Assembly (NCBI GenBank): GCA_964632795.1
Contig: CAZWEZ010000002.1
Coordinates: 28,702 to 92,701 of the forward strand
DNA: 64,000 nt
Reading direction: 5' to 3'
Origin: an uncultured Thalassospiraceae bacterium
GTDB lineage: Bacteria; Pseudomonadota; Alphaproteobacteria; Rhodospirillales; 2-02-FULL-58-16
Shown: positions 14,962-64,000 of the stretch, piece after piece
Layout of the letters: each line of letters starts with the position of its first letter
How positions within the stretch are numbered: position 1 is the stretch's first letter
Program-made: the position numbers and the translations under genes
Notes under the pieces: generated by a model
Databases searched by the model: none
Told to the model about the DNA's origin: nothing
The model's input: only the letters and a program-made list of their open reading frames with translations

Positions 14962-15075
14962 GTCAACACCGGTGTCTGTTTCAAGGGGGGAATATCACTA
15001 CATGGATTATGGGGATTTTTTTTGCCAAGGGCGACACTGAATTCTCCCTGGGCGCAGTCTCCCCCGGCCCTCCCC

Positions 15076-15534: not shown

Positions 15535-16381
15535 CCCCGATGTCGTCGCCGAGGGTGCGCAGGAACCCGGCGGCCTCGTTGGCCTGGACCACGGCGGCGC
15601 GGATCAGGCCGTCGAAATGGCGGGTCAACACCCGGATGTGCTCGGCGGTGTTGAACACGAAGTACATCTGGCCGACGTAGAGCGCCGCGCGCAACGGCCC
15701 GAAGATCGTATAGGGCACCGAATAGTGGCTCAGTTCGTCGTAAAAGAACAGGCGCAGCGAGGGATACAGTTCCTCGCCGAGGGCGATCATCCGTTCCACC
15801 TGCTCCAGCCGCGCCGCCGGCGGCAGGCCCCGCCACACCCCCTCGCCGCGGGCGAAGGAGGCCATCCCCTGGACCGTCATGCAGATCTCGACGTCGGTTT
15901 CAGGCTGCCGGATGTAGGCCAGCCGGTGGCGGCCGTCGCCGATCGCCTGGTCCGCCGTGCGGGCGACGAAACCCCGGAACTCGTGGCGGGTCACCCGGTC
16001 GGTCTTGAACGGGTCGGGCAGGGTCGTCGGCACGTGCCGGATCTTGTAGCCGGCGGCCTCCTGGTACCAGCGGTCAAGCCCCTCGTCGTCGATGGTCCCG
16101 GCGCTGGGCGTGAACTGCATCGATTCGAGAAGGATGTCGGCGCTCAGCCGGTCCTCCCGGCTCAGCCCCAGCAGCCAGTCGAGACTGACTCCCAGCGCGG
16201 TGGCGATGGCCGCCACCGTGTCCGAACGCGGCAGGCGGCCGGTGTCCCCGGACAACAGCTGGGACAGGGTCGAGCGGTCGATGCCGGTCCGCCTCGCCAG
16301 GGTCGAGCGGTTGAGCCCCGAACGGGCCATCGCCTCTCCCAGCCGGCTCCGGAACCGGCGCGCCATATCGCGGCGATCCAT
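15527..16381 (-). CDS. XRE-family HTH transcriptional regulator with a large C-terminal domain
   Basis: The N-terminal HTH reads LNRSTLARRTGIDRSTLSQLLSG, followed by about 200 aa of unassigned domain. Confidence 0.8.
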   Translation of the reverse strand: MDRRDMARRFRSRLGEAMARSGLNRSTLARRTGIDRSTLSQLLSGDTGRLPRSDTVAAIATALGVSLDWLLGLSREDRLSADILLESMQFTPSAGTIDDEGLDRWYQEAAGYKIRHVPTTLPDPFKTDRVTRHEFRGFVARTADQAIGDGRHRLAYIRQPETDVEICMTVQGMASFARGEGVWRGLPPAARLEQVERMIALGEELYPSLRLFFYDELSHYSVPYTIFGPLRAALYVGQMYFVFNTAEHIRVLTRHFDGLIRAAVVQANEAAGFLRTLGDDIGDG

Positions 16382-16435
16382 GGCCGCCTCCCGCTGTTCA
16401 TGGGACGCTCTGCCTGTTGTTTATTATCTACATTA

Positions 16436-16449
16436 AGTGACTTTTGTCA
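16436..16449. promoter_or_regulatory. Small palindrome GTGAC-TTTT-GTCAC in a divergent promoter region
   Basis: It lies in the AT-richer 160-bp gap between the XRE regulator gene and the Mo-enzyme gene. This is a candidate operator only. Confidence 0.3.
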
Positions 16450-16541
16450 CCACATTTGATCAATAGTGCGCATTCCCACGTTGCCCAAACAAGGCCGCCG
16501 CGCCACCCTGTCGAAATCTGGGCGAGCCGGAAATCGATACC

Positions 16542-18680
16542 GTGAACGTGATCAAGAACAAGGCGCCCCCCGGGGCGCCGCCGGGCGAGGTCGGGCGGCC
16601 GGTGAGGCGCACCGACGCCCCGGCCAAGGCGGCCGGCGCCACCCGCTATGCCGGCGACTTCGCGATGCCCGGCATGCTGCACGCCCGCGTCCTGCGCTCG
16701 CCGGTCGCCGCCGGCCGGCTGCGGGGCATCGACGCCGGCGCCGCCCGCGCCCTGCCCGGCGTCGCCTGCGTGCTGAGCGCCAAGGACATCCCCGGCGCCG
16801 GCGCCGTCTGCGGGCGGCCGGTGCTGGCCGCCGGCTCCATCCGTCATTACGGCGAGCCGATCGCCCTGATCGCCGCCCGGAGCCCGGCCATCGCCGAATT
16901 GGCGATGGCCATGATGGTCCTCGACATCGAGGAAACCGCCGCCGTCTTCGACCCCTCGGCGGCGCTGGCCCCGGGCGCCCCCGGGGTTCACGGCGAGGGC
17001 AACGTCTCGGCCCGCCACCGCATCCGCAAGGGCGACCTCGAGGCCGGCTTCGCCGCCGCCGAGATGGTGGTCGAGCGGACCTACCGGGTCGGTCGCATGG
17101 AGCACGCCTTCCTCGAACCCGAGGCGGGGATCGCCTGGCTCGACGAGGACGGCGTCCTCACCATCCGCGTCGGCACCCAGATGACCGACCACTACCGGGC
17201 GGTGGCCGAGGTGCTGGCGCTGCCCCCGGACAAGGTCCGGGTGCTGGGCATGTTCACCGGCGGCGCCTTCGGCGGCAAGGAGAGCGTCACCATCGAGGCC
17301 TTCCTCGGCCTGCTGGCCCAGGCGACCGGACGGCCGGTCCGCCTGGCCTGCGCCCGCGAGGAGTCGTTCCTCACCCACGGCCAGCGCCACGCCATGTCGA
17401 TGACCTACAGGAGCGGAATCACCCGGGACGGCAGGATCACCGCCCATGAGGTCGACATCGTCGCCGACGGCGGCGCCCACCCGGCGGTCAACCGGTTCGC
17501 GCTGTTCCATGCCGGCAACGCGGCGGCCGGCCCCTACCGGATCGACGCCATCCACGTCGACGCCGTGGCGGCGGCGACCAACACCCCGCCGGCCGAGGCC
17601 CTGAGAAGCTTCGGCGCCGGCCTGGCCTGCGTCGCCTACGAGGCCCAGATGGACGAGATCGCCAAGGCCCTGGGGATGAGTCCGCTGGAGGTGCGGCGCC
17701 GCAACTTCCTGGCACGCAACCAAACCACGGCCACCGGCCAGGCCGTGGAGAGCGCGGTATGGACCGGGCGCTGCATGGATCGGGCATGGCGGGCGTTGGG
17801 CGACAGGACCCCGGACGCGCCTCCCCTCAGGATCGGCCGCGGAATCGCCTGCTACCAGCAGTTCTACGGCCGCATCGCCACCAACCCGGAGTCCGCCGAG
17901 GCCGCGGTGGCGATCGAGGCCGACGGTTCGGTGACCGTGCGCACGTGCGTCCCCGACATCGGCGGCGGCCAGGTCTCGGCGCTGTGCCAGATCGCCGCCG
18001 AGGTGCTCGGCGTGGCCCTCGGGCGGGTGCGCATCGAACACACCGATTCAGCCGCCCTGCCGGCGGCCGGGGCGACCGGGGTCAGCGCCCAGCTCTACAT
18101 GTCGGGCAACGCCGTCAAGATGGCGGCGGAGCGCCTGCTTGCGCGGGCCGATCCCGAGGCCCCGGGGTCGGCGAGCGCCGTCTACCGGGCCCCCGTCGGC
18201 GCCATCGACCCCGACACCGGCCAGGGCTTCGCCTATCCCGACTTCACCTACGGCGCCCACGCCGTCGAGTTGGCGGTGGACGTCGAGACCGGCGAGGTGG
18301 CGGTGCTCAAGAGCGTCGGTTGCCACGACGTCGGGCGGGCCGTCAACCCGGCCGCCGTCGCCGGCCAGATCGAGGGCGGCGCGGTGATGGGGCTGGGCTG
18401 CGCGCTGAGCGAGGAGTTCAAGCTCCAGCGGGGACGGCCGGCCACGCCGTCGCTGGGCGAATACCTGATCCCCACCGCCATCGACGTCCCGGGGACCAAC
18501 CAGGCGATCATCCTCGAATCGGCCAGCGGGCTGGGACCCTTCGGGGCCAAGGGAATCGCCGAGGCCGCCTTCACCCCGGTCGCCCCGGCGATCGCCAACG
18601 CCGTCGCCGAGGCCATCGGGGTTCGCATCTTCGAGCTGCCGATCACCCCCGAGAAGATCGTCAAGGCGCTGCGGGGCTAG
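16542..18680 (+). CDS. Xanthine dehydrogenase / aldehyde oxidase family molybdopterin-binding subunit
   Basis: A 712-aa product with a GTG start. It opens with GRPVRRTDAPAKAAGATRYAGD and HARVLRSPVAAGRL (a/b hammerhead). Later GGGQ and GxGE-type motifs (DIGGGQVSAL, FGAKGIAEAA) are typical of the family. Confidence 0.85.
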   Translation: MNVIKNKAPPGAPPGEVGRPVRRTDAPAKAAGATRYAGDFAMPGMLHARVLRSPVAAGRLRGIDAGAARALPGVACVLSAKDIPGAGAVCGRPVLAAGSIRHYGEPIALIAARSPAIAELAMAMMVLDIEETAAVFDPSAALAPGAPGVHGEGNVSARHRIRKGDLEAGFAAAEMVVERTYRVGRMEHAFLEPEAGIAWLDEDGVLTIRVGTQMTDHYRAVAEVLALPPDKVRVLGMFTGGAFGGKESVTIEAFLGLLAQATGRPVRLACAREESFLTHGQRHAMSMTYRSGITRDGRITAHEVDIVADGGAHPAVNRFALFHAGNAAAGPYRIDAIHVDAVAAATNTPPAEALRSFGAGLACVAYEAQMDEIAKALGMSPLEVRRRNFLARNQTTATGQAVESAVWTGRCMDRAWRALGDRTPDAPPLRIGRGIACYQQFYGRIATNPESAEAAVAIEADGSVTVRTCVPDIGGGQVSALCQIAAEVLGVALGRVRIEHTDSAALPAAGATGVSAQLYMSGNAVKMAAERLLARADPEAPGSASAVYRAPVGAIDPDTGQGFAYPDFTYGAHAVELAVDVETGEVAVLKSVGCHDVGRAVNPAAVAGQIEGGAVMGLGCALSEEFKLQRGRPATPSLGEYLIPTAIDVPGTNQAIILESASGLGPFGAKGIAEAAFTPVAPAIANAVAEAIGVRIFELPITPEKIVKALRG

Positions 18681-49792: not shown

Positions 49793-50536
<744 letters not shown>

Positions 50537-50544
<8 letters not shown>

Positions 50545-51595
50545 TTCCTTTCACCAGGACATCGATTACGGCTTGGCGGGTAACCCGGCCGATCGGCCGG
50601 CCGTCGTCGTCGACGATCGTTGCATCGATGTCGCCGTCGATCAGTTGGGGCGCCAAGGCGTCGATCTTGGTGTGGGCCGGAACCACGTTCGATGTCGCGG
50701 CGCCTTCATCCAGCGGCGTCATGACGGCCCGCGCCGAGAGAACCTTGGCCCGGGGAATGTCCTTGGTGAATTCCCTGACGTAGTCGGTCGCCGGCTCGAG
50801 GACCAGTCGCTCGGGCGATCCGGTTTGAATGATCAGGCCGTCCTTCATGATGGCGATCCGGTCGGCGACCCGGATCGCCTCGTCGAAATCGTGGGTGATG
50901 AAGACGATGGTCTTCTGCAGCAGGTTCTGAAGACGAAGGAATTCGTCCTGCATCTCGCGGCGGATCAACGGATCGAGGGCCGAGAACGGCTCATCCAGGA
51001 ACCACACGTCCGGCTCCACGGCCAGCGAGCGGGCGATCCCCACCCGCTGTTGCTGGCCGCCCGAGAGTTCCCTGGGGTAGTAGTTCTCACGCCCCTTGAG
51101 GCCGACCAGTTCGATCATTTCCATCGCCCGGTTGGTGCGTGTACCACGGTCGATGCCCTGGATTTCAAGGGGGAACGCGACGTTGCCGAGAACCGTCAGA
51201 TGGGGCAGAAGGGCGAAATGCTGGAACACCATGCCCATCTTGTGGCGGCGGATTTCGGTGAGTTCCTGTTCCGGGATCGCCAGCAGGTCCCGGCCCTCGA
51301 AGACGACCTCTCCCGCCGTCGGTTCGATCAGCCTCGACAGACAACGCACCAATGTCGATTTGCCGGAGCCCGACAAGCCCATGACGACGAAGATCTCCCC
51401 CTCGCCCACCTGCAGCGTCGCATCGCGCACCCCGACCACGAAGCCGCCCTCGGCAAGGGCTTCCTCGGAAGGGGAAAAATGGTGGTCGTCGAGGAACCGG
51501 CGCGGCTCCGGTCCGAAAACCTTCCATAGCTTCCGGCACGATATCTTGACACCGTCCGGGCCGGTGTTTGCCCGGTGTTCAGATGGCGATGGCAT
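50537..51595 (-). CDS. Glycine betaine/proline-type ABC transporter ATP-binding protein with C-terminal CBS pair (ProV/OpuAA-like)
   Basis: Has Walker A GLSGSGKST, signature LSGGQQQRV and Walker B VWFLDEPFSALD, followed by a CBS-like tail. The start was set at ATG 51595 within track ORF 50537..51652. Confidence 0.85.
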
Positions 51596-52385
51596 CTTCG
51601 TACCCGCCGCTTGCCGAGACCACCTCGATACCGGTGTCCGCGAACGGTCCAACCACGTCGGGATCCATGCAGTCGGTGATCAGCATGTCGATTCTCGAGG
51701 CCGGCAGGGCGGTGATCCGGTCGCGTTGCATCAATTTCCGCGTCGTCATGAGGATCACGGTTCTGGTGGCCTGTTCGCTCATCAGTCGGGCCAGGGTGGC
51801 ATCCGCTTCGTAGGAATAGGTCAATCCCTCGCCAAGGGACAGGCCTTCCGCGGCAATGAAGGCGCAATCGGCGTTGAACGCCCTCAACATGCTCTCGGCG
51901 AAATCCCCGGAGGTCCCCAGTGTCCGGTGGCGAACCCGCCCGCCCAGCAGATAGGCCGAAATGGCGGGGCTTTCGGATAACAATGTCGCGACATTGACCC
52001 CCGGGGTGGCGACCATGAGCGGCATCCCCGTCGCCACCAGTTCCCGGGCCAGCGCCAAGACGGTCGAACCGTCGTTGATCAGCAACGTCTGATCGGGTTC
52101 GATGAAATCCAGCGCCTTGCGGGCGATGACCCGCTTGGCGTCGGCGTCCAGTTGTTCGCGCAACGCGAAGGCCTGATCGGCCCCCCGGGGCGCCTTGATG
52201 GCGGCGCCGCCATGGGTCCGGCGGATCGAGCCTTCTTCTTCCAGGCTGTTGAGGTCGCGGCGGATGGTGGCGACCGATGCCCCGAACCGCCTGGAAAGAT
52301 CCTCGACGCTCACCGCGCCCTCCAGCATCAACTGACGCTGGATGGCCTGTCTCCGGGCCGTGGGATTGTAGCTTCGATCACCCAT
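51579..52385 (-). CDS. DeoR/GlpR family transcriptional regulator
   Basis: Has the N-terminal HTH VSVEDLSRRFGASVATIRRDLNSLEEEG and a C-terminal sugar-phosphate sensor domain. Confidence 0.85.
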   Translation of the reverse strand: MGDRSYNPTARRQAIQRQLMLEGAVSVEDLSRRFGASVATIRRDLNSLEEEGSIRRTHGGAAIKAPRGADQAFALREQLDADAKRVIARKALDFIEPDQTLLINDGSTVLALARELVATGMPLMVATPGVNVATLLSESPAISAYLLGGRVRHRTLGTSGDFAESMLRAFNADCAFIAAEGLSLGEGLTYSYEADATLARLMSEQATRTVILMTTRKLMQRDRITALPASRIDMLITDCMDPDVVGPFADTGIEVVSASGGYEDAIAI

Positions 52386-52387
52386 GT

Positions 52388-52450
52388 CACGATCATATAA
52401 TCACATAAACGATCATTCATTCCTAAATTTCGATCAAAATCAAGAACCAT
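52388..52450. promoter_or_regulatory. Array of CGATCA-containing direct repeats, candidate DeoR operators
   Basis: CGATCA occurs at 52390, 52410 and 52431 (spacing 20 and 21 bp), with a related TTTGATTGAT at 52450. All lie in the AT-rich divergent promoter region. Confidence 0.35.
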
Positions 52451-52589
52451 TTTGATTGATTTATTGCCGAATGGGGTGCTAGCATCCTCCCACAGTTCTG
52501 CCGCGACCTTTCCGGGGCGCCTCGGCGCTTCACCGAATCAAACACGATGGTTCCGCTTTGAACTCGAGGAAAACAGGGAGGTAGAAATC

Positions 52590-53570
52590 ATGCTCGGAAG
52601 ATGTCGTCACTTATTGGCCAGCGCAATCGTCGTCGGGCTGCTGGCCGGGGTCGGGAGCCTTGGGGTTTCCCGGACCGCCGACGCCGGCGTGCCGGAATCC
52701 AAGGATACCATCAAGATCGTGATCATGGGTTATTCCGGCGACAACATCATCATGTACATCTACGGCAAACTGATCGAGAAGCTGGGTTATAACATCGAGT
52801 ATACGCCCGCCGACTATCTCGGCCAGTTCGCCGGTCTGGAAGCCGGAGATCTCCACATCGGCTCGCCGGGTTGGGACACCACCGCCAAGGCCGCCATGGC
52901 CGCCGCCTGGGGGTCGGGCAAGGTGCTCAACATGGGGAACATGGGGATCGCGGTCAACGAGGACTGGTGGTATCCCCTTTACGTCAAGGACAAATGCCCC
53001 GGCCTTCCCGATTGGAAAGCGTTGCTCGACCCCACCTGCGCCGAGTCGCTTTCGGTGGCCGAGACCTCGCCCAAGGGGCGGTTCCTGAGCGGCCCCATCG
53101 AGTGGGGCGGCCATGACGCCGAGAGGGTCGAAGCCCTGAATCTGCCGTTCGAGGTCATCCATGCCGGCAGCGACGGCGCGCTCACCGCCGAGTTCGTCGC
53201 CTCCATCAAGCGCAAGCAGCCGATCGTCGGCTGGACCTGGGAGCCTTTCTGGCTGCCGGCGCTCTTTGAGGGCGAGTTCGTGGTATGGCCGGACTATGAC
53301 GATGCCTGCTACGAGGATGCGAGCTGGGGCCCCAATCCCGATAAGACCCATGATTGCGGCCGTCCGCGCGGCTTCATGTGGAAGTCCGCCTGGGCCGGCG
53401 GCGAATCCATCTGGCCGAAAGCCTATGATGTATGGCGCAAATTCAATCTCGACGCCAAGACCATGGGTGAAATGGTCAATAAAAGCGACATCGAGGGGGT
53501 GCCCACAGAACAGGTCGCCCAGGATTGGATCGACAGCCACCAAAGCACCTGGAAGTCCTGGCTCGAATAA
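52590..53570 (+). CDS. ABC transporter substrate-binding protein, glycine betaine (OpuAC/ProX) fold family
   Basis: A 326-aa product from ATG 52590, preceded by AGGGAGG. It has a signal peptide. Aromatic-rich text (WWYPLYV, GWTWEPFW) is typical of OpuAC-type binding proteins. Confidence 0.75.
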   Translation: MLGRCRHLLASAIVVGLLAGVGSLGVSRTADAGVPESKDTIKIVIMGYSGDNIIMYIYGKLIEKLGYNIEYTPADYLGQFAGLEAGDLHIGSPGWDTTAKAAMAAAWGSGKVLNMGNMGIAVNEDWWYPLYVKDKCPGLPDWKALLDPTCAESLSVAETSPKGRFLSGPIEWGGHDAERVEALNLPFEVIHAGSDGALTAEFVASIKRKQPIVGWTWEPFWLPALFEGEFVVWPDYDDACYEDASWGPNPDKTHDCGRPRGFMWKSAWAGGESIWPKAYDVWRKFNLDAKTMGEMVNKSDIEGVPTEQVAQDWIDSHQSTWKSWLE

Positions 53571-53664
53571 GCGGGGCATTTACAGTAGCGGTCGATCCGC
53601 GCGAAAACAGACGGCGGCCGGTGTGATCATACCGGTCGCCGCCCTTTTCCGGGCACTGGACCTT

Positions 53665-53697
53665 ATACCAAGGGTCATTATCAGTGCCCCTTGGTAT
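53665..53697. repeat. Short REP-like hairpin (ATACCAAGGG...CCCTTGGTAT)
   Basis: A 10-bp stem with a 13-nt loop. It is an inverted copy of the element at 37053-37085. Confidence 0.45.
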
Positions 53698-53706
53698 TAG
53701 TATGCG

Positions 53707-55719
53707 ATGACGTCGATCACTATCGCCGATAAGTCCAATACCGTTCATCTCAGGCCCGGCACGGCGGCGATCCTGCTCGCTCTGGCGGCGACGGTCCTGC
53801 TCATGTGGTTCAACGGCATGGTGCCGTGGGCCATGGAATATCCGGACCCCTGGGTGGTTCATGTCGATCGCTGGTTGACCATCTCGTTCAAGTGGCTGGT
53901 CAACGATGCCGATCTCGGACTGTTTACCTTCAAGGAGATGACCCGGGCCTTTGGGGCGATGCTCGACGCCCCGGTCCTCTTTCTGAAGGGTTTGCTCTCG
54001 ACCGGGTTCAAGTTCGAGAGCGAGGACGGCTTGGTCCTCAAATTCCCGCCGCTTTCATGGATCGGCGTCATCGCCGTTTTCACCCTGATCGGAATATCCC
54101 TCGGCAACTGGCGCCTGGTCGTCTTCATTGCCGCCTCCTTTATCTACGTCGCCCTCATCGGTCTCTGGGAAAGCACGATGCTGACCTTCGCCTCGATCAT
54201 CGTCGCCGTGGTGATCGGGGTGGTGACGGGGGTGCTGCTGGGGATAGCGGCCTATCGCTGGAAGCCGGTGGACATGATCCTGACGCCGGTCTTCGACTTC
54301 ATGCAGACGATGCCGGTCTTCGCTTATCTGGTGCCGGCCCTGATGCTGTTCGGCTACGGCCCCGCCGCCGCCATGGTGGTGACCCTGATCTACGCCATGC
54401 CGCCCATGGCGCGCGTCACCAAGATCTCTCTCGGCCAGGTTCGCGAGGAGACGGTGGAGTTCGGCAGGATGGCGGGATGCTCGCGACGCCAATTGACGTG
54501 GAAGGTCATGTTGCCGTCGATCCGTCCCCGCCTCATGGTCGGCGTCAACCAGGTCATCATGCTGACCTTGAACATGGTGATCATCGCTTCGATGATCGGC
54601 GCCGGTGGGCTTGGCTTCAATGTCTGGCAATCCCTGAAGGCGCTCAGGATCGGCCAGGGCGCCGAGGCGGGAATCGCCATCACCCTGGTCGCCATCGTTC
54701 TCGACCGCATCAGCCAGCGCTACGCCGCCCGCCGTCCGGAGCATAAGGACACCCCGGAAACCTTTGCCATGCGCCACCGGTTTCTGATCGCCGCCGCCGG
54801 GTTCGCCGTCGTCTTCACGGTGATCGGTCTCAGGGTGCCCGCCGTGGCAACGGTGCCCGAGGATTGGATAATGTCCACCGGGCGTTTCTGGGACAACATC
54901 ATCGATTGGATCAACCTCAATCTCTATGTCTATATCCGCGCCGTGCGCGACTCGTTCTTCATTTACCTTTTGAAGCCCTTCAAGCATTTCATGCTGTCCC
55001 TGCCCTGGCTCGGCGTGACGCTGATCCTGGCCGCCATCGGCTACCGCCTCGGCGGTTGGCGCCTTGCCCTTCTGGAGGTCGGGCTGATCGGCTTCATCGC
55101 CGTCGTGGGTTTATGGGAAAAGGCGATGATCTCGGCCTATCTGGTCGGCGTATGCGTTTTGCTGGCGAGCCTGATCGGCATCCCCATCGGCATCGCGGCG
55201 TCTAGAAACGACCGCCTCGATCGTATCGTCGCGGTGATTATCGACACCCTGCAGACCCTGCCGGCGTTCGTCTATCTTATCCCGGTGATCATGCTGTTCA
55301 GCGTCGGCGATTTCTCGGCCATGATCGCGGTCGTGCTGTATGCCGTGGTGCCGGCGATCCGCTACACCAACCACGGCCTGCGCCAGGTGCCCGAGGATGT
55401 CATGGAAGCGTCCCGCTCCATGGGCTGCACCCAAAGCCAGATTCTATGGCGGGTGCAACTTCCCCTGGCCCTTCCCGACATCATGCTGGGCATCAACCAG
55501 ACCCTGATGATGGGGCTCTCCATGCTGGTGATCACGGCGCTGGTGGGCACCCGCGATCTTGGCCAGGAAACATTGATCGCGCTTTCCACGGTGGATCCGG
55601 GACGGGGACTGACCGCCGGTATCTGCGTGGCATTCATCGCCATCGCCGCCGATCGCCTGATCAACGCCTGGGCGAGACGGCGAAAGAAGGAACTCGGACT
55701 GGATGACTCGAACATCTAG
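53707..55719 (+). CDS. Fused double ABC transporter permease (ProW/OpuAB-like, two BPD domains)
   Basis: A 670-aa product containing two repeats of the permease core. EAA-like loops occur at EFGRMAGCSRRQLTWKVMLP and EASRSMGCTQSQILWRVQLP. Confidence 0.85.
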   Translation: MTSITIADKSNTVHLRPGTAAILLALAATVLLMWFNGMVPWAMEYPDPWVVHVDRWLTISFKWLVNDADLGLFTFKEMTRAFGAMLDAPVLFLKGLLSTGFKFESEDGLVLKFPPLSWIGVIAVFTLIGISLGNWRLVVFIAASFIYVALIGLWESTMLTFASIIVAVVIGVVTGVLLGIAAYRWKPVDMILTPVFDFMQTMPVFAYLVPALMLFGYGPAAAMVVTLIYAMPPMARVTKISLGQVREETVEFGRMAGCSRRQLTWKVMLPSIRPRLMVGVNQVIMLTLNMVIIASMIGAGGLGFNVWQSLKALRIGQGAEAGIAITLVAIVLDRISQRYAARRPEHKDTPETFAMRHRFLIAAAGFAVVFTVIGLRVPAVATVPEDWIMSTGRFWDNIIDWINLNLYVYIRAVRDSFFIYLLKPFKHFMLSLPWLGVTLILAAIGYRLGGWRLALLEVGLIGFIAVVGLWEKAMISAYLVGVCVLLASLIGIPIGIAASRNDRLDRIVAVIIDTLQTLPAFVYLIPVIMLFSVGDFSAMIAVVLYAVVPAIRYTNHGLRQVPEDVMEASRSMGCTQSQILWRVQLPLALPDIMLGINQTLMMGLSMLVITALVGTRDLGQETLIALSTVDPGRGLTAGICVAFIAIAADRLINAWARRRKKELGLDDSNI

Positions 55720-57277
55720 GGCGGACGGGGACAGGCCGCGGGCGGTCGTCATCGGCGGCGGCGCCACGGGGTGCGGGGTGGCGCGCGATCTGGTCCTGCG
55801 CGGGCTCGACGTCACGCTGGTCGAGTACGGCGATCTGGGCAGCGGGACCAGCAGCCGCTTCCACGGCATGTTGCAGAGCGGCGCCCGCTATGTCGTAAGC
55901 GATACACGATACGCCGCCGAATGCATGGAGGAGCGGCGTATCGTCGCCGGCCTCGTTGCCAACGCGGTCGAGCTGAGCGGCGGATTGTTCGTCGCCCTCG
56001 ATGAAGACCCTCCCGAGTTCGCGGACCGCTTCGCGCAAGGGTGCCGGTCGGCCCGGATTCCGGTCGAGGAACTCGATCCCGGCCGTGTCATGAGTGACCA
56101 GCCCGCCATCAGCCGCCGCGTCGTCCGCGCCTTTTCGGTTCCCGACGCGACGATCAATTCGTGGCGGCTGGTCAACTCGCTGGCCGACGACATCCAGGGG
56201 CGGGGCGGGCTCGTCCTGTCCCGCCATCAGGTCACGGCGATCGATGTCCGGGGAGGCCGGGTGCGGGCCGTCATCGTCAAGGGAAACGGAAGCGAGCGCC
56301 GCATCGAGACCGACATCGTCGTCAACGCCTCGGGTTCGTGGTCGGCCCGCGTCGCCGCGCTGGCCGATCAACGGGTCGATCTGGAGTTGACCAAGGGGGC
56401 GATCATCGTCCTGGCCCATCGCCTCGTCGGGGCCGTGGTCAACCGCTGCCGGCCGCCATCCAGCCACGACATCATCGTTCCGACGGGTACCGTAAGCCTG
56501 TTCGGAACCACTTCCGAAGTGGTCGAGGACCCGGACACGACGACGGTCGGGGCGGCCGAAATTCAGGTGTTGCTGGACGGCGCCGAACCCCTCATCCCCG
56601 GCATCCGGCAGTATCGGGCCTTGCGCGCCTGGGCGGGTGTCCGCCCGCTGGTCAAGCCGGCCGATTGGCCGGACGGCACTCCCCTGTCGAGACGCCATCA
56701 GGTGATCGATCACGCCGAGGACGGTCTTCACGGTTTCTTCACGGTCTGCGGCGGCTCCCTGACCACCCACCGCTCGATGGCCGAGGATGTGGGCAACCAT
56801 GTCTGCCGGCAATTGGGACTCTCCCGACCTTGCCGGACGGCGACCACGCCGTTGGGGGAGGACGGCGCTCGAGACCACTGGCGGCCCACGGAAAATTACC
56901 AGCGCCTTGAACGCGAGGGCAGGTTCGACATCCCGATTTGTGAATGCGAAGCGGTCGATGGGGCGGCCATTTCCGAACTCATCGAGACCCGGGGCATGAA
57001 ACGGCTTCACGACCTCAGGCGCCGGCTGCGGATCGGCTTCGGGCCGTGCCAGGGGACGTTCTGCGGCCCCCGCGTGGCGGGACTGCTGGCCGAAGCCGAT
57101 CCCGATTTCCGGACCGAAGCGGAACTCGGACGCTTCTGGAGCGAACGCCTGAAGGGCATGGCGCTGACCGCGTGGGGGGAACAGGCGCGACAGCTTCTCC
57201 TCAGCGACGCGGTCTATCGCGAAACGCTGGGCATCCGGCTGGGCCGGGAAATCTTGCCGGCCGAGGATCATCGATGA
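55703..57277 (+). CDS. glpA: Anaerobic glycerol-3-phosphate dehydrogenase subunit A-like FAD oxidoreductase
   Basis: Has the FAD motif VVIGGGATGCGVARDL, the block GTSSRFHGMLQSGARY, and a C-terminal BFD-like 2Fe-2S segment (CECEAV...GPCQGTFC). It overlaps the permease gene's end by 17 nt. Confidence 0.8.
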   Translation: MTRTSRADGDRPRAVVIGGGATGCGVARDLVLRGLDVTLVEYGDLGSGTSSRFHGMLQSGARYVVSDTRYAAECMEERRIVAGLVANAVELSGGLFVALDEDPPEFADRFAQGCRSARIPVEELDPGRVMSDQPAISRRVVRAFSVPDATINSWRLVNSLADDIQGRGGLVLSRHQVTAIDVRGGRVRAVIVKGNGSERRIETDIVVNASGSWSARVAALADQRVDLELTKGAIIVLAHRLVGAVVNRCRPPSSHDIIVPTGTVSLFGTTSEVVEDPDTTTVGAAEIQVLLDGAEPLIPGIRQYRALRAWAGVRPLVKPADWPDGTPLSRRHQVIDHAEDGLHGFFTVCGGSLTTHRSMAEDVGNHVCRQLGLSRPCRTATTPLGEDGARDHWRPTENYQRLEREGRFDIPICECEAVDGAAISELIETRGMKRLHDLRRRLRIGFGPCQGTFCGPRVAGLLAEADPDFRTEAELGRFWSERLKGMALTAWGEQARQLLLSDAVYRETLGIRLGREILPAEDHR

Positions 57278-58506
57278 ACACCGATATTCTCATCTTCGGC
57301 GCCGAGCTTGACGCATTGATCGCCGCCCTTCGCCTGTCGCAACGCGGTCACGGTGTCCGCGTGCTGGCCGCCGGCGCCGGTTCCCTGCACTACGCGCCCG
57401 GCGGCATCCATATGCTCGGATACCTCTCCGAGGGTGACGGCGAGGCGGTGTCTTCGCCGATGGCCGGCATTTCGGCGCTGGACGTCCGCCATCCGTACCG
57501 GCTGCTTGGCGCGGAGCGGATCGAAAGCGCGCTGGACTGGTTCTTCGCCGCCGCCGGGAAGGCCGGCCTGAAGTTCCGGGTCAACGGAGCCAACGTCACG
57601 GCGCTGACCCCCGCCGGCCTGGGCTTGCCGGTGTACGCGCCGACGGAGAAGCAGGCGACGATGGAGGACCTGCGCGGCCGAAAAGTGGCGGTCGTCCGAT
57701 TTCGCGGCCATCGCGACCTGCCCGCCGGTATCGTCGTATCCGGGCTGTCGCGCCAAGGCATCGAGACCACCCTGGTGACCGTCGATCCCCCCGGCCCGAG
57801 CCCCGAAAGCATCGACATGGCAAGGGCCTTCGACGGCCAGGCCGACTTCGGAAAGTACTTCGCCGGGATAAAAGCCTGTTTTCCCGAAGGGACCGAATGC
57901 GCCCTGTTCCCGGCCGTGCTTGGACTCGATTCTCACAACCGGGTCGCCGGCGAAGCGGAAGCGGCCCTGGGGATGCCGTGCCTCGAGGTTCCCACGTTGC
58001 CGCCAAGCGTTCCCGGCATCCGCCTGTACCGGGCGTTGACGCGGGAACTCGAGCGCAATGGGGTCTTGCTCCACCTTGGCGTCGAGGCCGGCGAAATCAT
58101 TGCCGGCGATGGGAAATGCACGGCGGTCAGGGACGACATGGGCCGGGTGTACGAGGCTTCCGCCTTCATCGTCGCCACGGGCGGAGTCCTGATGGGAGGA
58201 CTGGACGTCGATTCCTTCGGAAAGGTCCGTGAGACCACGTTCGCCCTGGAGGTCTTTCAGGGGGCGCCGCTGGACGCCCAAACGGTCGATCGGTCCCTGG
58301 CCGCGTTGCACCAAAGCGGCGTCGAATGCGACGCCAGCCTGCGCCCGGTGGCCGGCGGCAAGCGCGTCCATGACAACCTTTTCGTCACCGGCCGCACGCT
58401 GGGCCACTGGAATCCTTCCCTCGAGGCGTCTTCCGAGGGGGTTTCCATCGCCACCGGATGGGCGGCGGCGGAAGAAGCCCGGATATACCTTGAGGGGGAG
58501 GGTTGA
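57274..58506 (+). CDS. glpB: Anaerobic glycerol-3-phosphate dehydrogenase subunit B-like protein
   Basis: A 410-aa product from ATG 57274, overlapping the glpA stop (ATGA). The N-terminal DILIFGAELDALIAALRLSQRGHGVRVLAAGAGSLHY resembles GlpB. Confidence 0.7.
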   Translation: MNTDILIFGAELDALIAALRLSQRGHGVRVLAAGAGSLHYAPGGIHMLGYLSEGDGEAVSSPMAGISALDVRHPYRLLGAERIESALDWFFAAAGKAGLKFRVNGANVTALTPAGLGLPVYAPTEKQATMEDLRGRKVAVVRFRGHRDLPAGIVVSGLSRQGIETTLVTVDPPGPSPESIDMARAFDGQADFGKYFAGIKACFPEGTECALFPAVLGLDSHNRVAGEAEAALGMPCLEVPTLPPSVPGIRLYRALTRELERNGVLLHLGVEAGEIIAGDGKCTAVRDDMGRVYEASAFIVATGGVLMGGLDVDSFGKVRETTFALEVFQGAPLDAQTVDRSLAALHQSGVECDASLRPVAGGKRVHDNLFVTGRTLGHWNPSLEASSEGVSIATGWAAAEEARIYLEGEG

Positions 58507-58509
58507 GCC

Positions 58510-60003
58510 ATGGAAAGCGGGGTATACGTGGGGATCGATCACGGCGGCTCGACCACGACCGCCCTGGTTTTCGATACCGAACGCGGGAAACTGGCCAGTT
58601 TTTCGGTCCCCATGCCCAAGCAGACACCGCGGGTGGGCTGGGTCGAGCACCACCCGGACGACTTCGTGCGGACCAGCCTGGAGGCGGCGGCCGGGGCGCT
58701 CGGGCGGGCCGGCCTTTCGTGGCGCGATGTCCGCGCCCTGGGGATCGCCAACCAGGGCGAGACCTCCATGGCGTGGTCCAGGGAAAGCGGTCTGGCCATC
58801 GGCCCCGCCATTTCCTGGGAAGACCGCCGGACCACGGAGATATGTACGTCGTTGGCCGGCAGGGGGGTCGACGATCTGGTCCGCGAGCGGACCGGGGTCC
58901 TGCTCGACCCGTACTTCTCGGCGACCAAGTTCCGGTGGCTGATCGACAACGTCGAGGAGGCCAGGTCGGCCTTCGATCGAGGGACCCTCGGCTTCGGCGG
59001 CACGGATTCATACACCATCAACCGGCTCACCGGGGGCGAGGTCCATGCCACCGACGCCGCCACCGGATCGCGGACCGCGTTGTTCAACCTCAGGGGCGTG
59101 CATTGGGACCACGACCTGTTGGAGGCTTTCGGCCTGTCACCTTCGGCGATGCCCGAAATCCGCTCCAGTTGCGGCGATTACGGCACCGTCCGGCATCCCG
59201 AAATCGACGCCGCCGGAATCCGCATCACCGCCGACACGGTGGACGCCCACGCGGCGCTGTTCGCCCAGGGGTGTCGGGACGACACCACCGCCAAGGCGAC
59301 CTACGGCACCGGAGCCTTCATCGAGACCAATACCGGGACCAGCCCCGTCGAACCCGACGGCAAGCTGCCGGTGTTCATCGCCTGGGAGATCGACGGCCGG
59401 GTCGATTACACCATCGAAGGGGGCGTCTTCTCGGTGGGTTCGGCTGTCGACTGGGTGGTCGGCTCGGGCCTTCTGCCGTCGGCCGCCGAATCTTCCGACC
59501 TCGCCGAGGGGGTTCCGGATTCCGGCGGGGTGGTCATGGTGCCGAGCTTTACCGGCCTCTCCGCGCCGCATTGGGAATCCGCCGCCAGGGCCTGCATCCT
59601 GGGCCTCGGTCTCGACACCACCGCCGGGCATATCGCCCGGGCGCTCCTCGACGGGATCGCTTTTCAATGCGCGGATATCGTGAGCGCCTTGAACCAAAGG
59701 CTCGGCGGCACTGTCAGGGAGGTCAGGGGCGACGGCGGCCCGACCCGCAACAGCTACCTCATGCAGCGTCAGGCCGACCTTCTGGAAATGCCGCTCACGG
59801 TGTCGCTGGAACCCGACATGACGGCGCTGGGGGCGGCGCTTCTGGCGGCCATCGGGGATGGCCAACTGACCCAGCAGGAGGTTGCCGCCATGGACCGGGA
59901 AACCATCGTCTACGAACCCGGGATGGGCGGCGACGAACGCCAATCCCTGTGGGCGGAATGGCGCAAGACCGTCGCCGTGGCCAGCCAAAGGGCAAGAGCA
60001 TGA
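58510..60003 (+). CDS. glpK: Glycerol kinase-like FGGY carbohydrate kinase
   Basis: GWVEHHPDD, GIANQGETSMAW, ISWEDRRT, LDPYFSATKFRWLIDNV and FGGTDSYTINRLTGG parallel the GlpK blocks. Confidence 0.75.
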   Translation: MESGVYVGIDHGGSTTTALVFDTERGKLASFSVPMPKQTPRVGWVEHHPDDFVRTSLEAAAGALGRAGLSWRDVRALGIANQGETSMAWSRESGLAIGPAISWEDRRTTEICTSLAGRGVDDLVRERTGVLLDPYFSATKFRWLIDNVEEARSAFDRGTLGFGGTDSYTINRLTGGEVHATDAATGSRTALFNLRGVHWDHDLLEAFGLSPSAMPEIRSSCGDYGTVRHPEIDAAGIRITADTVDAHAALFAQGCRDDTTAKATYGTGAFIETNTGTSPVEPDGKLPVFIAWEIDGRVDYTIEGGVFSVGSAVDWVVGSGLLPSAAESSDLAEGVPDSGGVVMVPSFTGLSAPHWESAARACILGLGLDTTAGHIARALLDGIAFQCADIVSALNQRLGGTVREVRGDGGPTRNSYLMQRQADLLEMPLTVSLEPDMTALGAALLAAIGDGQLTQQEVAAMDRETIVYEPGMGGDERQSLWAEWRKTVAVASQRARA

Positions 60004-61238
60004 CCGACGGCCGGGATGGGGTCCTCGGCACCATGGACCGGTGTACCAAGTGCGGCATCTGCCAGTCCTACTGTCCCGTCTCGGCGGCCACCACCCTCTT
60101 CCCCGGCCCCAAGTACACGGGTCCGCAAGCCCAGCGGTTTCGCGTCATCGAACCGACAGCCGACATCTCTCCGGCGCTGTGCAGCGGTTGCGGGGTGTGC
60201 ACCAGCGTCTGCCCCAACGGTGTCGCGATCGCCGACATCATTACCATCGCCAAGGCCGCAATGGCCGGCGGCGGTAAAAATTTGCCGATCAGGCAACGCC
60301 TCCTCAACCGTCCCGACATGATTGGCCTGCTCGGCGGACGAACCCCCGCCCTGACCAACGGAATCCTCGCCAACCGGTTCCTGCGCGGCCTCGCCGAGCG
60401 CCTGATCGGCATCCACCGCAAGGCCCCGCTACCCAAGGTCAGCGGCCCCGTGTTCCGCCGCTGGCTGAACGCCCATGGCCAGCCGGACGGCCCCATGGTC
60501 ACGTATTATTCCGGCTGCGCCGTCGAGAACTACGATCCCCACGTCGGGATCGCGCTGGTCCGGGTGATGAACCGTCTCGGCTTCCATGTCGAGGCGCCGA
60601 GCGAGGCGTGTTGTTCCCTGCCGATGCTGTCGAGCGGCGAATGGGAGGCCGCCTCGAGCCGCGCCGATAAACTCATCGACGAGCTGAGCCCCGCCGCCGA
60701 GGCCGGCCGCCCCATTATCTCCACCTCGATCAGTTGCGGCCTGGCGATCAGAGCCAAATACGCCACATACCTCAACCGCCTGGACGACAAATCGAAACGG
60801 GTCGCCGGAGCCGTCGTCGACGTCTGCGAGTTTCTGCGCGACGGCCATGACGAAGAACTCGCCTCGTTCCTGACCCCCCTGCCCCTACGAATTCTTTACC
60901 ACGGCCCATGTCAACTCCGCGGACACCGCATGGGGATGCCGGCGGTGGAACTCCTGCGCCTGATCCCGGAGCTGTCGAGCGAACTGTCCCAAGCCGATTG
61001 CTGTGGGGTATCGGGAACCTATGGCTACGACGCCGAAAAATACGACATCGCCAACGCCGTCGGCAGGACGCTTTTCGATCAGGTGGCGGAAACCGGGCCG
61101 GACCTCATCGTCTGCGACAGCGAGACATGCCGGTGGAACATAGAACAGGAAACGGGCGTGCCCTGCCGTCACCCCATCGAGGTCCTCGCCGCCGCCATCT
61201 TCGGGGAAGACCCGGCGCACAGGGAACCCCTGCCATAG
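60000..61238 (+). CDS. glpC: Anaerobic glycerol-3-phosphate dehydrogenase subunit C-like Fe-S protein
   Basis: A 412-aa product from ATG 60000, overlapping the kinase stop (ATGA). It has two ferredoxin-type Cys clusters (CTKCGICQSYCP, CSGCGVCTSVCP) and two CCG-type domains. Confidence 0.8.
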   Translation: MTDGRDGVLGTMDRCTKCGICQSYCPVSAATTLFPGPKYTGPQAQRFRVIEPTADISPALCSGCGVCTSVCPNGVAIADIITIAKAAMAGGGKNLPIRQRLLNRPDMIGLLGGRTPALTNGILANRFLRGLAERLIGIHRKAPLPKVSGPVFRRWLNAHGQPDGPMVTYYSGCAVENYDPHVGIALVRVMNRLGFHVEAPSEACCSLPMLSSGEWEAASSRADKLIDELSPAAEAGRPIISTSISCGLAIRAKYATYLNRLDDKSKRVAGAVVDVCEFLRDGHDEELASFLTPLPLRILYHGPCQLRGHRMGMPAVELLRLIPELSSELSQADCCGVSGTYGYDAEKYDIANAVGRTLFDQVAETGPDLIVCDSETCRWNIEQETGVPCRHPIEVLAAAIFGEDPAHREPLP

Positions 61239-61289: not shown

Positions 61290-62771
61290 CTATCCGCCGA
61301 GCGCCCGGGCCATCTTTTGAACGGCCGGGCGGATTTTTTCCACCGGGGTGCAACAGAATCCCAAGAACAGGCCGGGGCGCGGCTGTTGCTCGTTGAAGTA
61401 GAACGATATGGGAAAGCTCGAGACGCCGAGTTCCGATATCTTGCGTCTGGCCACCAAGTCATCGCTACCCGAAGAAAGCCAGCCGATGACGTTCATCCCG
61501 GCCCGCGCCGGCGACACGTTCATAATGCCGTCGAGATCGCCGCGGATGGCATCTACGATGGCATCTTGACGTTCGGCGTAAACCTGACGCATGCGCCGAA
61601 CATGGGTCGAAAAATAACCGTTATCGATAAAATCCGCGAGCACCGCCTGGGGAAGGGTGGACACGCCGCGGGTCAACAGATGCACGGCGGCGCTGTACGC
61701 GTCCACCAGTCCCGGCGGCGCCACCAGATAGCCGATACGCAGCGACGGGAAGAGCACCTTGCTCAAGGTCCCGATATAGATGACCCGGCCGTTGCGGTCT
61801 ATGGTCTGCAGGGGAGCCAGCGGGGCACTGGAAAAGCGGAATTCGCTGTCGTAGTCGTCTTCGACGATCCAACTCTTGTTTCGGGTCGCCCAAGCCAGCA
61901 GCTCCAGGCGCCGAGGCAGGCTCAATGTCACGCCCAGGGGATATTGGTGTGAAGGCGCGACCACGGCCAGGCGCGCGTCCGGCTTGCTGGCGATACCGGC
62001 GGAAACCTTCATCCCGTTGTTATCGACCGGGACGTTGACGATGGAAGCCCCAAGACCGATGAGCATATCGCGCATGGTCAAAAAGCAGGGGTCTTCCATC
62101 AACACCGCATCGCCGGGATCGAGAAGAATCCAGGCTGTGAGACTCAAGGCCATCTGCGCCCCGGCAACCACGATGACCTGGCCCTCGTCACACTTGATCC
62201 CGCGGGCATCGCGCAGATAGGCGGCGATCGCCCGACGCAAAGGCGGGTATCCCAGCGGGCTCCCATAGTTGAGCATTTCGAGTGCCGGTTGGCGATGCCG
62301 GCGCGCCGTGAGCCGCGCCCAAACGCCGAAGGGGAATTGGTCGTAGGCCGGTTGGTTGGGGACGAAGGCGGTCGGCACCTGTGGCGGGTTGTTGGACCGG
62401 GTTTTCGCCACCAGGGCGCCCCGCCGCGACAGAATGATCTCCGGCTTCGCTGGCCCGGTCCGGAGCCTGCCCGGTAGCGGCGGTTCCATGATCTGTTCGC
62501 TAAGGTCGGTCCCGACAAAAGTGCCGGCCCCAACCCTGCCTTCGAGAAAACCTTCGGCGATCAGTTGTTCGAAGGCCGTCACCACGCTCGTCCGCGAGAC
62601 TCCGAGTTGCTTTGCCAGGATACGGCTGGAAGGCAGCCGCAACCCCGACGGCAGGCGTCCGGAAAGAACCGCCTGGCGGATCTGCGCGCCCAATTGCTGA
62701 AACAGCGGAACGGAGGAGTTCCGATCCAGGTTGACGAAGGAGAAAAGAGCGACCCCCACCCGTTTCCGCAT
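61290..62771 (-). CDS. MocR/PdxR-type regulator (GntR HTH fused to a PLP aminotransferase-like domain)
   Basis: A 493-aa product with the N-terminal wHTH LPSSRILAKQLGVSRTSVVTAFEQLIAEGFL. This is followed by a fold-type I aminotransferase body with the lysine context IYIGTLSKVLFPSLRIGY. Confidence 0.85.
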   Translation of the reverse strand: MRKRVGVALFSFVNLDRNSSVPLFQQLGAQIRQAVLSGRLPSGLRLPSSRILAKQLGVSRTSVVTAFEQLIAEGFLEGRVGAGTFVGTDLSEQIMEPPLPGRLRTGPAKPEIILSRRGALVAKTRSNNPPQVPTAFVPNQPAYDQFPFGVWARLTARRHRQPALEMLNYGSPLGYPPLRRAIAAYLRDARGIKCDEGQVIVVAGAQMALSLTAWILLDPGDAVLMEDPCFLTMRDMLIGLGASIVNVPVDNNGMKVSAGIASKPDARLAVVAPSHQYPLGVTLSLPRRLELLAWATRNKSWIVEDDYDSEFRFSSAPLAPLQTIDRNGRVIYIGTLSKVLFPSLRIGYLVAPPGLVDAYSAAVHLLTRGVSTLPQAVLADFIDNGYFSTHVRRMRQVYAERQDAIVDAIRGDLDGIMNVSPARAGMNVIGWLSSGSDDLVARRKISELGVSSFPISFYFNEQQPRPGLFLGFCCTPVEKIRPAVQKMARALGG

Positions 62772-62980
62772 CGCCCTCCCCCGAAAGAAACCAAATATGC
62801 CGCCAGGAAATTGGTATGATCGATATGGCGGAAATGGATATTAACACCAATGCCAATCTGGGTCTAATGTCGGATAGTCGCCACCATCATGGCGGACCGC
62901 CGGTATGCCGGCGGTTTGTTATCGACCGGTGCAAAAGAAAAATAATTACGCGGCAACAGCCAAACAGGAGGAGAAGACCA

Positions 62981-64000
62981 ATGTCATTCAGATACCGTAA
63001 AGGCGTCCGAACGGGGACCATCATTTCACTCATTGCGGGGCTGGGCATCGCCTTCGCGGCGACGGCGCAGGCGGCCGGTTGCCCGACGGTTGCCGATCCC
63101 CAGGGGGTGAAACCTGAACACCCGCAGCAGATGGACCTTGCCGAATTCGAGAAGCAGACGGGCACAAGCCTGACGTTTACCGAAAACCCGTTTTTTGCCG
63201 AGCGCGTCAAGGCCTGGACATTGCCGCCGGTCGTGGAACGGCTGCCCTGGGAGCCGTTGGTGGTGCTGCCCTATGACGAATGCGGCAAGTACGGCGGAAC
63301 CCTGCGCGGCATGGCCCGCAAGTACGAGTCGGGAACCTCGGAGATCCTCGCCTGGCGTCAAGACAACATGGTCCGCATTCTCGACGACGGCCAGACCGTC
63401 GTTCCCAACGTGGCCAAGGCCTGGAAATGGAACGACACCTACACCGAGATCACTTTTTTCCTGCGCAAGGGCCACAGATGGTCCGACGGCGCCCCCTTCA
63501 CCGCCGATGACGTGACCTTCTGGGCCAATGACATCATCAACAACAAGGATATCCATAAGACGACGCCGGCACCTTGGAACATCGGCATGAGGGCCGAAAA
63601 GATCGATGATGCGACGGTCAAGCTGATCTTCGACAAGCCCTATCCGGCGTTTTTGAGCTACAACGCCGGGATGGGTTCCTACTTCACGATCTTCGAGGCC
63701 AAGCATTTCCTGGCGCCGCTGCACATCGACTACAACCCGAAGGCCGACGAGCAAGCCAAGGCGGCCGGGTACGACGGCTGGGTGCAACGCTTCACCAAGT
63801 TCTGGAACAAGTGGAAAGATGCGACAACGGCGATTCCCGAGGGGGTCAGGATTCCGACCCTGGAAAGCCATCTCATGGTTTCGCCGTTGACCACGCAGCG
63901 TCGGAACTATGAAGCCAATCCTTACTTCTTCAAAGTCGATACCAGTGGCCAGCAACTGCCATATATCAACAAAATCAACGAACGGTTCCTCAACTCCGAA
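62981..64000 (+). CDS. ABC transporter substrate-binding protein, family 5 (peptide/nickel type), truncated by the right window edge
   Basis: ATG at 62981 is preceded by AGGAGGAG. It has the signal peptide TIISLIAGLGIAFAATAQA. The frame stays open to the window end and is absent from the track for that reason. The text FFLRKGHRWSDGAPFTADDVTF is typical of SBP_bac_5. Confidence 0.8.
   Translation, partial: MSFRYRKGVRTGTIISLIAGLGIAFAATAQAAGCPTVADPQGVKPEHPQQMDLAEFEKQTGTSLTFTENPFFAERVKAWTLPPVVERLPWEPLVVLPYDECGKYGGTLRGMARKYESGTSEILAWRQDNMVRILDDGQTVVPNVAKAWKWNDTYTEITFFLRKGHRWSDGAPFTADDVTFWANDIINNKDIHKTTPAPWNIGMRAEKIDDATVKLIFDKPYPAFLSYNAGMGSYFTIFEAKHFLAPLHIDYNPKADEQAKAAGYDGWVQRFTKFWNKWKDATTAIPEGVRIPTLESHLMVSPLTTQRRNYEANPYFFKVDTSGQQLPYINKINERFLNSE

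Follow-up and report, generated by a model that had tools for sequence, protein, structure and literature searches.

A conserved cassette joining a TmoX-type importer to glp-like genes in a Thalassospiraceae bacterium, and its possible role in the catabolism of a cationic glycerol analog

For the GlpABC family of respiratory dehydrogenases, glycerol-3-phosphate (G3P) is to our knowledge the sole established substrate. Among binding proteins of the OpuAC fold, TmoX of Ruegeria pomeroyi (structure 4XZ6) binds trimethylamine N-oxide (TMAO), in a pocket formed by Trp55, Trp102, Phe106, Glu131, Trp177, Phe220 and Trp222 (PMC8918994). Here we describe a locus in which relatives of both occur together, at positions 50537-61238 of a 64,000-nucleotide stretch of contig CAZWEZ010000002.1 from an uncultured Thalassospiraceae bacterium (assembly GCA_964632795.1); this whole stretch is called the window below. 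The locus consists of eight genes, for a three-component ATP-binding cassette (ABC) importer, a DeoR-type repressor, three GlpABC-like subunits and a GlpK-like kinase. Domain and family calls were made from a listing of open reading frames (ORFs) and from Pfam and NCBIfam scans of the window proteins, and they confirmed the layout of the initial annotation, with the DeoR gene and a ProV-like ATPase gene on one side and the OpuAC-fold protein, a double permease, GlpA, GlpB, the kinase and GlpC on the other. Our preferred reading, to which we give a probability of roughly 0.45, is that this cassette imports a small cationic glycerol analog, and not glycine betaine, TMAO or plain glycerol, and degrades it in two steps; the substrate, probably cationic, would be an amino- or onium-substituted propanediol.

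A scan with the binding protein over one genome per species gave 25 loci, against which all eight cassette proteins were then searched by tblastn. Wherever the contig is long enough, the eight genes are present in the same order and orientation, in about 20 other genomes from several orders of Alpha- and Gammaproteobacteria, with protein identities of 35-84%. The carriers, many of which are marine or sponge-associated, include Kiloniellales, Dongiaceae, Hyphomicrobiales, Rhodospirillales, a MarineAlpha5 bin and Planktomarina, as well as the gammaproteobacterial Candidatus Spongiihabitans and Candidatus Njordibacter and a Candidatus Poriferihabitaceae bin. No flanking gene recurs across loci: all-against-all ORF clustering returned just the eight genes and shadow frames, tblastn found no match at the other loci for the HAD, MocR-like, SBP_bac_5 and creatininase genes of the window, and in a Pfam tally of 70 flanking ORFs no family occurred in more than three. 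A hydrolase or isomerase step hidden inside the unit was considered and rejected, since none of these three comparisons showed an extra conserved gene. In the window the permease and GlpA-like genes overlap by 17 nt (ATG at 55703, TAG at 55717-55719), and elsewhere they overlap or are separated by at most about 50 nt. Chance adjacency is ruled out by the recurring gene order, the unrelated flanks and this overlapping junction, and the proposal that transporter and glp-like genes form one unit is thus borne out across loci. Reading of the sequence likewise verified the coupled junctions reported earlier, that is, 55703/55719, the ATGA at 57274 between GlpA and GlpB, and the ATGA at 60000 between the kinase and GlpC.

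Because its flanks are unrelated and its kinase is absent from all 40 genomes of the same family or order that were searched, the cassette behaves as a self-contained module that moves horizontally. A GlpA of any kind was found in two of 301 genomes sampled across the class. A plasmid search with the kinase recovered canonical GlpKs only, at 44% identity or less, and the cassette is therefore not on known plasmids. Base composition is only suggestive of transfer, with a GC content of 64.5% in the cassette and 65.7% in the genome, and a GC content at third codon positions of 0.81-0.85 compared with 0.95 in the canonical glp genes. In the GlpA tree (trees were built with FastTree on modest alignments), the kinase has been lost twice independently, in Spongiihabitans and in a Rhodospirillales bin, each nested among kinase-bearing relatives.

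The binding protein, a periplasmic OpuAC-fold protein of 326 amino acids (52590-53570, + strand; PF04069, 3.8e-34), is encoded in an ORF of 52452-53570, where its actual start is the ATG at 52590, with GGGAGG upstream and a signal peptide at the N-terminus of the product. Its closest solved relative is TmoX (4XZ6, E 5.3e-68), E. coli ProX being a remote match (E 1.5e-6), and its fold is fixed by a 45%-identical crystal structure. The transporter, first described as OpuA/ProU-type, is therefore placed instead in the TmoXWV (TMAO) branch, and glycine betaine appears unlikely as its substrate, because the score on the ProX equivalog NF008334 is 35.1 bits against a cut-off of 215. In the alignment with 4XZ6, the TmoX pocket maps to Tyr48, Trp95, Ala99, Glu124, Trp172, Trp215 and Trp217 of the window protein, with four of seven residues kept and three replaced (W55→Y, F106→A and F220→W). 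When the window protein was aligned with those of the 24 other loci (n = 25, one structure as reference), Y48, W172 and W215 were invariant, W95, E124 and W217 varied at locus L022 alone, and A99 was Gly at one other locus. Five residues (Y48, S49, D51, N52 and W233) are invariant in 25/25 and different in all three of the other TmoX-like paralogs encoded in this genome. The pocket would have kept the cation cage and its Glu, lost a bulky Phe, and gained an Asp, an Asn and a Tyr hydroxyl beside the first cage residue, and we read its ligand as somewhat larger than TMAO, positively charged and hydroxyl-bearing, with no anionic group. The suggestion in the initial annotation of a glycerol- or quaternary-amine-containing compound other than glycine betaine fits this residue evidence, although its example of a glycerophosphodiester headgroup is unlikely.

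Related transporters occur in other catabolic settings. At L022, a sister transporter is found without glp-like genes, and its binding protein, about 70% identical to that of the cassette, carries Ile, Arg and Cys in place of three cage residues. Its neighbors (5700-18500) encode an APH/choline-kinase-like protein, a Rieske oxygenase, a DAO+GCV_T protein (dimethylglycine-dehydrogenase-like), a class-III aminotransferase and a DAO+BFD oxidoreductase, and the region resembles an island for the breakdown of amino alcohols or methylamines, with the same transporter as its scaffold. Two of the paralogs in the Thalassospiraceae genome (47% and 41% identical; G000:C47 = L043:6549-12338 and G000:C6 = L044:8977-11787) adjoin choline-dehydrogenase-type GMC oxidoreductases, and the transporter family seems to be repeatedly paired with alcohol-oxidizing enzymes in this genome. 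One of these GMC-linked paralogs is also accompanied by a 670-amino-acid double permease; the permease fusion is thus not peculiar to the cassette.

The FGGY kinase (58510-60003, + strand; FGGY_N and FGGY_C) scores 460.8 bits on the GlpK equivalog TIGR01311, under the cut-off of 590.35, and shares 36% of its residues with E. coli GlpK and 41% with the genome's own canonical GlpK. Its FGGY/ASKHA fold with a catalytic Asp is present and its GG/N nucleotide-site residues are also kept; DHGGSTTT, NQGETS, VDAHAAL and GAFIE are its motifs. In an alignment of 13 cassette kinases (that of the window and 12 others) with the two GlpKs just named, E85, W104, Y136, the catalytic D246 and F271 (E. coli numbering) are kept in 13/13, and T14→G, R18→T, R84→G, Q247-Q248→Ala-His, Q105→E and L273→E are changed in every one. 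Among the residues that we take to be glycerol or G3P contacts in E. coli GlpK (UniProt P0A6F3; T14, R84, E85, Y136, D246 and Q247), the cassette kinase keeps E85, Y136 and D246 and loses T14, R84 and Q247. When a library of 1.84 billion proteins was searched, a single full-length sequence (515 bits, 53% identity) fell in the clade, along with three that are fragmentary or partial; the matches that follow are canonical GlpKs, at no more than 387 bits. The kinase thus belongs to a separate clade that is isolated in this global search, and is not an ordinary GlpK.

A comparable divergence is seen in the GlpA-like catalytic subunit (55703-57277, + strand), a flavin adenine dinucleotide (FAD)/[2Fe-2S] protein with the GlpA architecture of a DAO domain and a C-terminal BFD-like [2Fe-2S] domain (Fer2_BFD), partnered by glpB and glpC. 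It is 39% identical to E. coli GlpA and scores 519.6 bits on TIGR03377, under the cut-off of 552.8; another genome of this order encodes a canonical GlpA that reaches 602 bits on this model and has the canonical H, K and Y forms, which canonical GlpD likewise retains. E. coli GlpD, E. coli GlpA and the genome's own GlpD agree in 85 alignment columns, of which the cassette clade keeps 49. All 15 members carry H50→Q, K354→S, Y358→H, Y313→W and S314→A (E. coli GlpD numbering), I268 has become Phe in 14 and Trp in one, and R54 and R317 are kept. The altered motifs read MLQSGARY versus LLHSGARY, GGSLTTHR versus GGKLTTYR, and WAGVRPL versus YSGVRPL. According to a passage in PMC10726252 that cites Elkhal et al. 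2015, His51 of Mycoplasma pneumoniae MpGlpO has been proposed as the base that takes the proton of the C2 hydroxyl; from the shared motif, the position changed from His to Gln in the GlpA-like clade would be its equivalent. Kinase and GlpA-like subunit therefore both belong to separate clades with altered active-site residues and are not ordinary GlpK and GlpA. Both have lost positive or hydrogen-bond-donating side chains, the kinase gaining acidic and the GlpA-like subunit aromatic residues, in parallel with the changes in the binding protein.

The two remaining subunits were scored against their own family models. The GlpB-like flavoprotein subunit (57274-58506, + strand; FAD_binding_2) scores 160.1 bits on TIGR03378 (cut-off 174.15), and its stop codon (TGA 58504-58506) lies 3 nt before the kinase start (ATG 58510), with a GA-rich Shine-Dalgarno-like stretch upstream. 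The GlpC-like iron-sulfur membrane-anchor subunit (60000-61238, + strand), which has two CCG domains and a 4Fe-4S dicluster domain, reaches 383.6 bits on NF008369 (cut-off 278) and 273.3 bits on TIGR03379 (cut-off 279.9). Canonical glp genes coexist with the cassette. This genome encodes GlpK (684 bits) and GlpD (697 bits) on other contigs, and a canonical-type GlpK match was found in all five of the other cassette genomes tested, above the cut-off in four and split into pieces of 415 and 213 bits, under the cut-off, in the fifth. Both genomes that have lost the cassette kinase hold a canonical-type GlpK.

The other importer components agree with membership of the quaternary-amine transporter (QAT) family in part. 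The binding protein has the OpuAC fold, the permease is of the ProW type and the ATPase of the ProV type, and the tandem CBS module is absent. The fused double ProW/ChoW-type permease (53707-55719, + strand; 670 amino acids, two BPD_transp_1 halves) scores 408.9 bits on the choline ChoW model TIGR03416 against a cut-off of 363, a score summed over its two halves. The ATPase (ORF 50537-51652, - strand; PF00005, 3.1e-33) likely starts at the ATG at 51595, a start placed from the translation and overlapping the end of the DeoR gene. It passes the proV subfamily cut-off of TIGR01186 (344 bits, cut-off 326.6), with the ProV-model match ending at position 280 of 400, scores 320 bits on the ChoV model (cut-off 483.75), and has counterparts of 57-71% identity at 16 other loci. 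Of the "CBS tail" first assigned to it, one weak CBS motif stands (PF00571, 22.7 bits, cut-off 24), but not a tandem pair as in ProV. The binding-protein and permease genes are separated by 136 nt that contain two hairpins, and gaps of a comparable kind occur at other loci. Within 53605-53700, one hairpin is a GC-rich stem-loop with CTTTTCC after it, possibly an attenuator or mRNA stabilizer, and the second is REP-like, of the form ATACCAAGGG...CCCTTGGTAT.

The regulator gene (51579-52385, - strand) encodes a DeoR/GlpR-family protein with both the HTH_DeoR domain (1.2e-16) and the DeoRC sensor domain (2.8e-38). Its best NCBIfam matches, GlpR_Halo and AgaR, are both far under their cut-offs, and it reaches no equivalog cut-off. 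A DeoR gene lies beside the binding-protein gene at 21 cassette loci (51-69% identity), and L022 has a weaker match of 39%. The divergent control region between the two genes (52386-52589, no strand assigned) is AT-rich and contains CGATCA repeats and the element TTGATTGAT; the CGATCA repeats are not conserved at the other loci. Of 20 homologous intergenic regions between the DeoR and binding-protein genes, 19 contain TGATTG/CAATCA; about ten of the 20 (nine clearly) have it arranged as CAATCA-N16-TGATTG, a plausible operator for the DeoR protein.

If the preferred reading is correct, the TmoXWV-type importer would bring the solute in by means of a binding protein whose enlarged pocket combines an aromatic cage with two acidic residues. 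A primary hydroxyl would be phosphorylated by the GlpK-derived kinase, and the quinone-linked flavoprotein complex derived from GlpABC would, presumably as the later step, oxidize the adjacent carbon and deliver the electrons to the respiratory chain. The DeoR repressor would occupy the inverted repeat at the divergent promoter until released by the phosphorylated intermediate, its supposed effector. One candidate substrate is a C2-amino analog such as serinol, whose phosphate ester could be oxidized to dihydroxyacetone phosphate (DHAP) and ammonia; such a route would account for the cassette being self-sufficient as well as for its missing hydroxyl-directed base. The other is a C1-onium or C1-amino propanediol, e.g., 3-amino- or 3-trimethylammonio-1,2-propanediol, which fits the retained Trp cage and the enlarged pockets better than serinol does. 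We tentatively suggest, as an idea that may well fail, that the cassette represents an undescribed route for a cationic glycerol analog, for which a TMAO-type binding protein, a glycerol kinase and GlpABC were re-specialized together. In its sharpest form, the GlpA-like subunit, with Gln for the catalytic His, would be an amine dehydrogenase that converts phosphorylated serinol, 2-amino-1,3-propanediol phosphate, or an N-methylated relative directly to DHAP; in an alternative form, it would oxidize 3-(trimethyl)ammonio-1,2-propanediol phosphate. A search of the accessible literature returned no description of the cassette or of serinol catabolism, and one review of serinol mentions no degradation or catabolic route.

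The main rival is a second high-affinity scavenging module for glycerol (or for glycerol and G3P), in which a retooled TmoX-derived binder, the kinase (forming G3P), the GlpABC-like complex (forming DHAP) and a GlpR-like repressor would act together. We consider it rather doubtful, and still a serious candidate. The Glp families are the best match for all four catabolic genes, GlpC being above one of its two cut-offs and GlpA near its own, and such a pathway would be complete without further genes, which matches the lack of conserved neighbors; the kinase is dispensable where a canonical GlpK is present, and it retains E85, W104, Y136, D246 and F271, as the GlpA-like subunit retains its two Arg. 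However, the tested cassette genomes already have a canonical-type GlpK, and this one GlpD too. The His→Gln and GGK Lys→Ser changes are found in every member of the GlpA-like clade whereas canonical GlpA keeps both residues, three contact residues of the kinase have become Gly, Gly and Ala with acidic residues gained, and the binding protein has a near-complete quaternary-amine cage together with the Glu and a new Asp. These charge changes, pointing to a cation in the binding protein, the kinase and the GlpA-like subunit alike, also weigh against another small neutral polyol or hydroxy compound, such as a four-carbon polyol handled as in the erythritol pathway with further steps encoded elsewhere. 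A divergent kinase and flavoprotein under a DeoR-type regulator would suit such a compound, for which EryA, EryB and EryD of Brucella are a precedent, but no isomerase or other follow-up gene is conserved nearby, and polyols are normally imported by sugar-type ABC or tripartite ATP-independent periplasmic (TRAP) systems, so that we regard this explanation as improbable. A larger glycerol-containing headgroup, whose glycerol part would be processed by the kinase and dehydrogenase, seems quite improbable as well. Glycerophosphocholine or the deacylated headgroup of a betaine lipid would agree with the quaternary-amine cage, the Glp-like enzymes downstream, the enlarged kinase pocket, and the marine or sponge setting of many carriers. 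Yet neither the cassette nor its surroundings have a conserved gene for a phosphodiesterase, a lipase or an ether-cleaving enzyme, the binding pocket differs from the small TMAO pocket at just three of seven positions and gains an Asp, which would repel phosphate, rather than phosphate-binding residues, and G3P released from glycerophosphocholine would need no kinase. Finally, an importer for an osmolyte (TMAO, betaine or choline) might lie next to an unrelated respiratory G3P dehydrogenase operon by coincidence, as the permease and ATPase scores above the ChoW (summed halves) and proV subfamily cut-offs might suggest. This is very improbable: the eight genes stay together across classes while the flanks change, permease and GlpA overlap, and the homolog with the altered pocket, at L022, is the one without glp-like genes.

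A number of considerations weigh against a cationic substrate. The predicted binding, catalysis and pocket geometry are drawn from homology. We know of no natural cationic glycerol-analog solute that is abundant, and of no natural marine pool of serinol or of a C1-onium or C1-amino propanediol, and for most cationic analogs the oxidation product would have no obvious route into central metabolism. A self-sufficient cassette is most simply one that converts glycerol to G3P and then to DHAP, the GlpC-like subunit passes one equivalog cut-off, and the GlpA-like subunit is at 94% of its own. Two independent losses of the kinase with a canonical GlpK kept fit glycerol, or a substrate that canonical GlpK accepts. 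Aromatic residues recognize glycerol too, Trp and Phe sandwiching it in GlpK, and the roles given to GlpD K354 and Y358 and to several GlpK residues are presumed ones. Glycine at Arg84 also occurs in 28 of the 150 nearest GlpK-like representatives, in two FastTree groups (P0129-P0265) that are otherwise canonical, and since it is shared with these two groups, Arg84→Gly alone was rejected as a marker of a non-glycerol kinase; the specificity of the cassette kinase lies in the combination of its changes.

Further genes were noted in or near the window, and one beside the cassette of another carrier. A HAD-family hydrolase gene (PF12710, 6.8e-32; 49828-50544, - strand), which at its start overlaps the end of the ATPase gene by 8 nt, is probably co-transcribed with the DeoR and ATPase genes in this genome. 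None of the other cassette loci has a counterpart of this gene, whose product could have been added locally as a phosphatase acting on the phosphorylated intermediate. Directly after GlpC, a MocR-type regulator gene (GntR HTH and aminotransferase domains; 61290-62771, - strand) is divergent from a gene for a family-5 solute-binding protein (62816-64000, + strand), and neither is conserved at other cassette loci. About 7 kb past the end of the window, the same contig carries another gene of the DAO family (G000:C2:99883-101055) that matches the GlpD model weakly, at 123 bits. In one alphaproteobacterial carrier, and at this locus only, a gene for a non-pyrrolysine methyltransferase of the MttB family (672 bits; L004:3624-5180) is located about 4 kb upstream of the cassette; MttB-family enzymes demethylate quaternary amines.

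Automatic annotation would describe this locus as a glycine betaine transporter, a glycerol kinase and an anaerobic G3P dehydrogenase, and each of these three names is probably inaccurate in detail. Models of marine, sponge-symbiont and some soil bacteria would in that case mis-assign a carbon source, and perhaps a nitrogen source. A cationic substrate, if true, would broaden the chemistry known for the GlpABC family and imply an unrecognized small nitrogenous solute in marine and sponge habitats. Should the substrate be plain glycerol, the cassette would still contain a new type of glycerol ABC importer, a much less surprising outcome. Three ligand-handling proteins from two unrelated systems that change together make a clean case of enzyme evolution and a good target for ligand discovery.

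Compared with known systems, the importer resembles TmoXWV, the TMAO importer of Ruegeria pomeroyi and SAR11 (PMC8918994), in its OpuAC fold and in keeping three of the four cage Trp residues and the ligand Glu. It differs in W55→Y, F106→A and F220→W, in the new invariant Asp51 and Asn52, in its linkage to glp-like genes and a DeoR gene, and in an ATPase gene on the opposite strand; no TMAO-catabolic genes (tdm/tmm) were recognized among the cassette neighbors scanned. With ProU/OpuA and ChoXWV it shares the 3.A.1.12 architecture of an OpuAC-fold binder, a ProW-type permease and a ProV-type ATPase, but it has one weak CBS motif and a catabolic rather than osmoregulatory context. The E. coli glp regulon (GlpK, GlpABC and GlpR) has the same protein families, subunit set, FAD, [2Fe-2S], 4Fe-4S and CCG domains, and regulator family; in the cassette, however, the active-site motifs are changed, the kinase gene stands between glpB and glpC, and uptake would be by a QAT-family ABC importer rather than by GlpF or GlpT. 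The erythritol pathway of Brucella and Rhizobium, with the EryA kinase, the GlpD-like dehydrogenase EryB and the repressor EryD, follows the same logic of phosphorylating a polyol and then oxidizing it, under a repressor that senses a sugar phosphate, but uses a sugar-type ABC transporter, a single-subunit GlpD-type enzyme, and three isomerases that have no counterpart in the cassette. The protein superfamilies and the logic of import, phosphorylation, oxidation and DeoR control are thus known, and what is new is their conserved combination, with coordinated changes in the binder, the kinase and the dehydrogenase.

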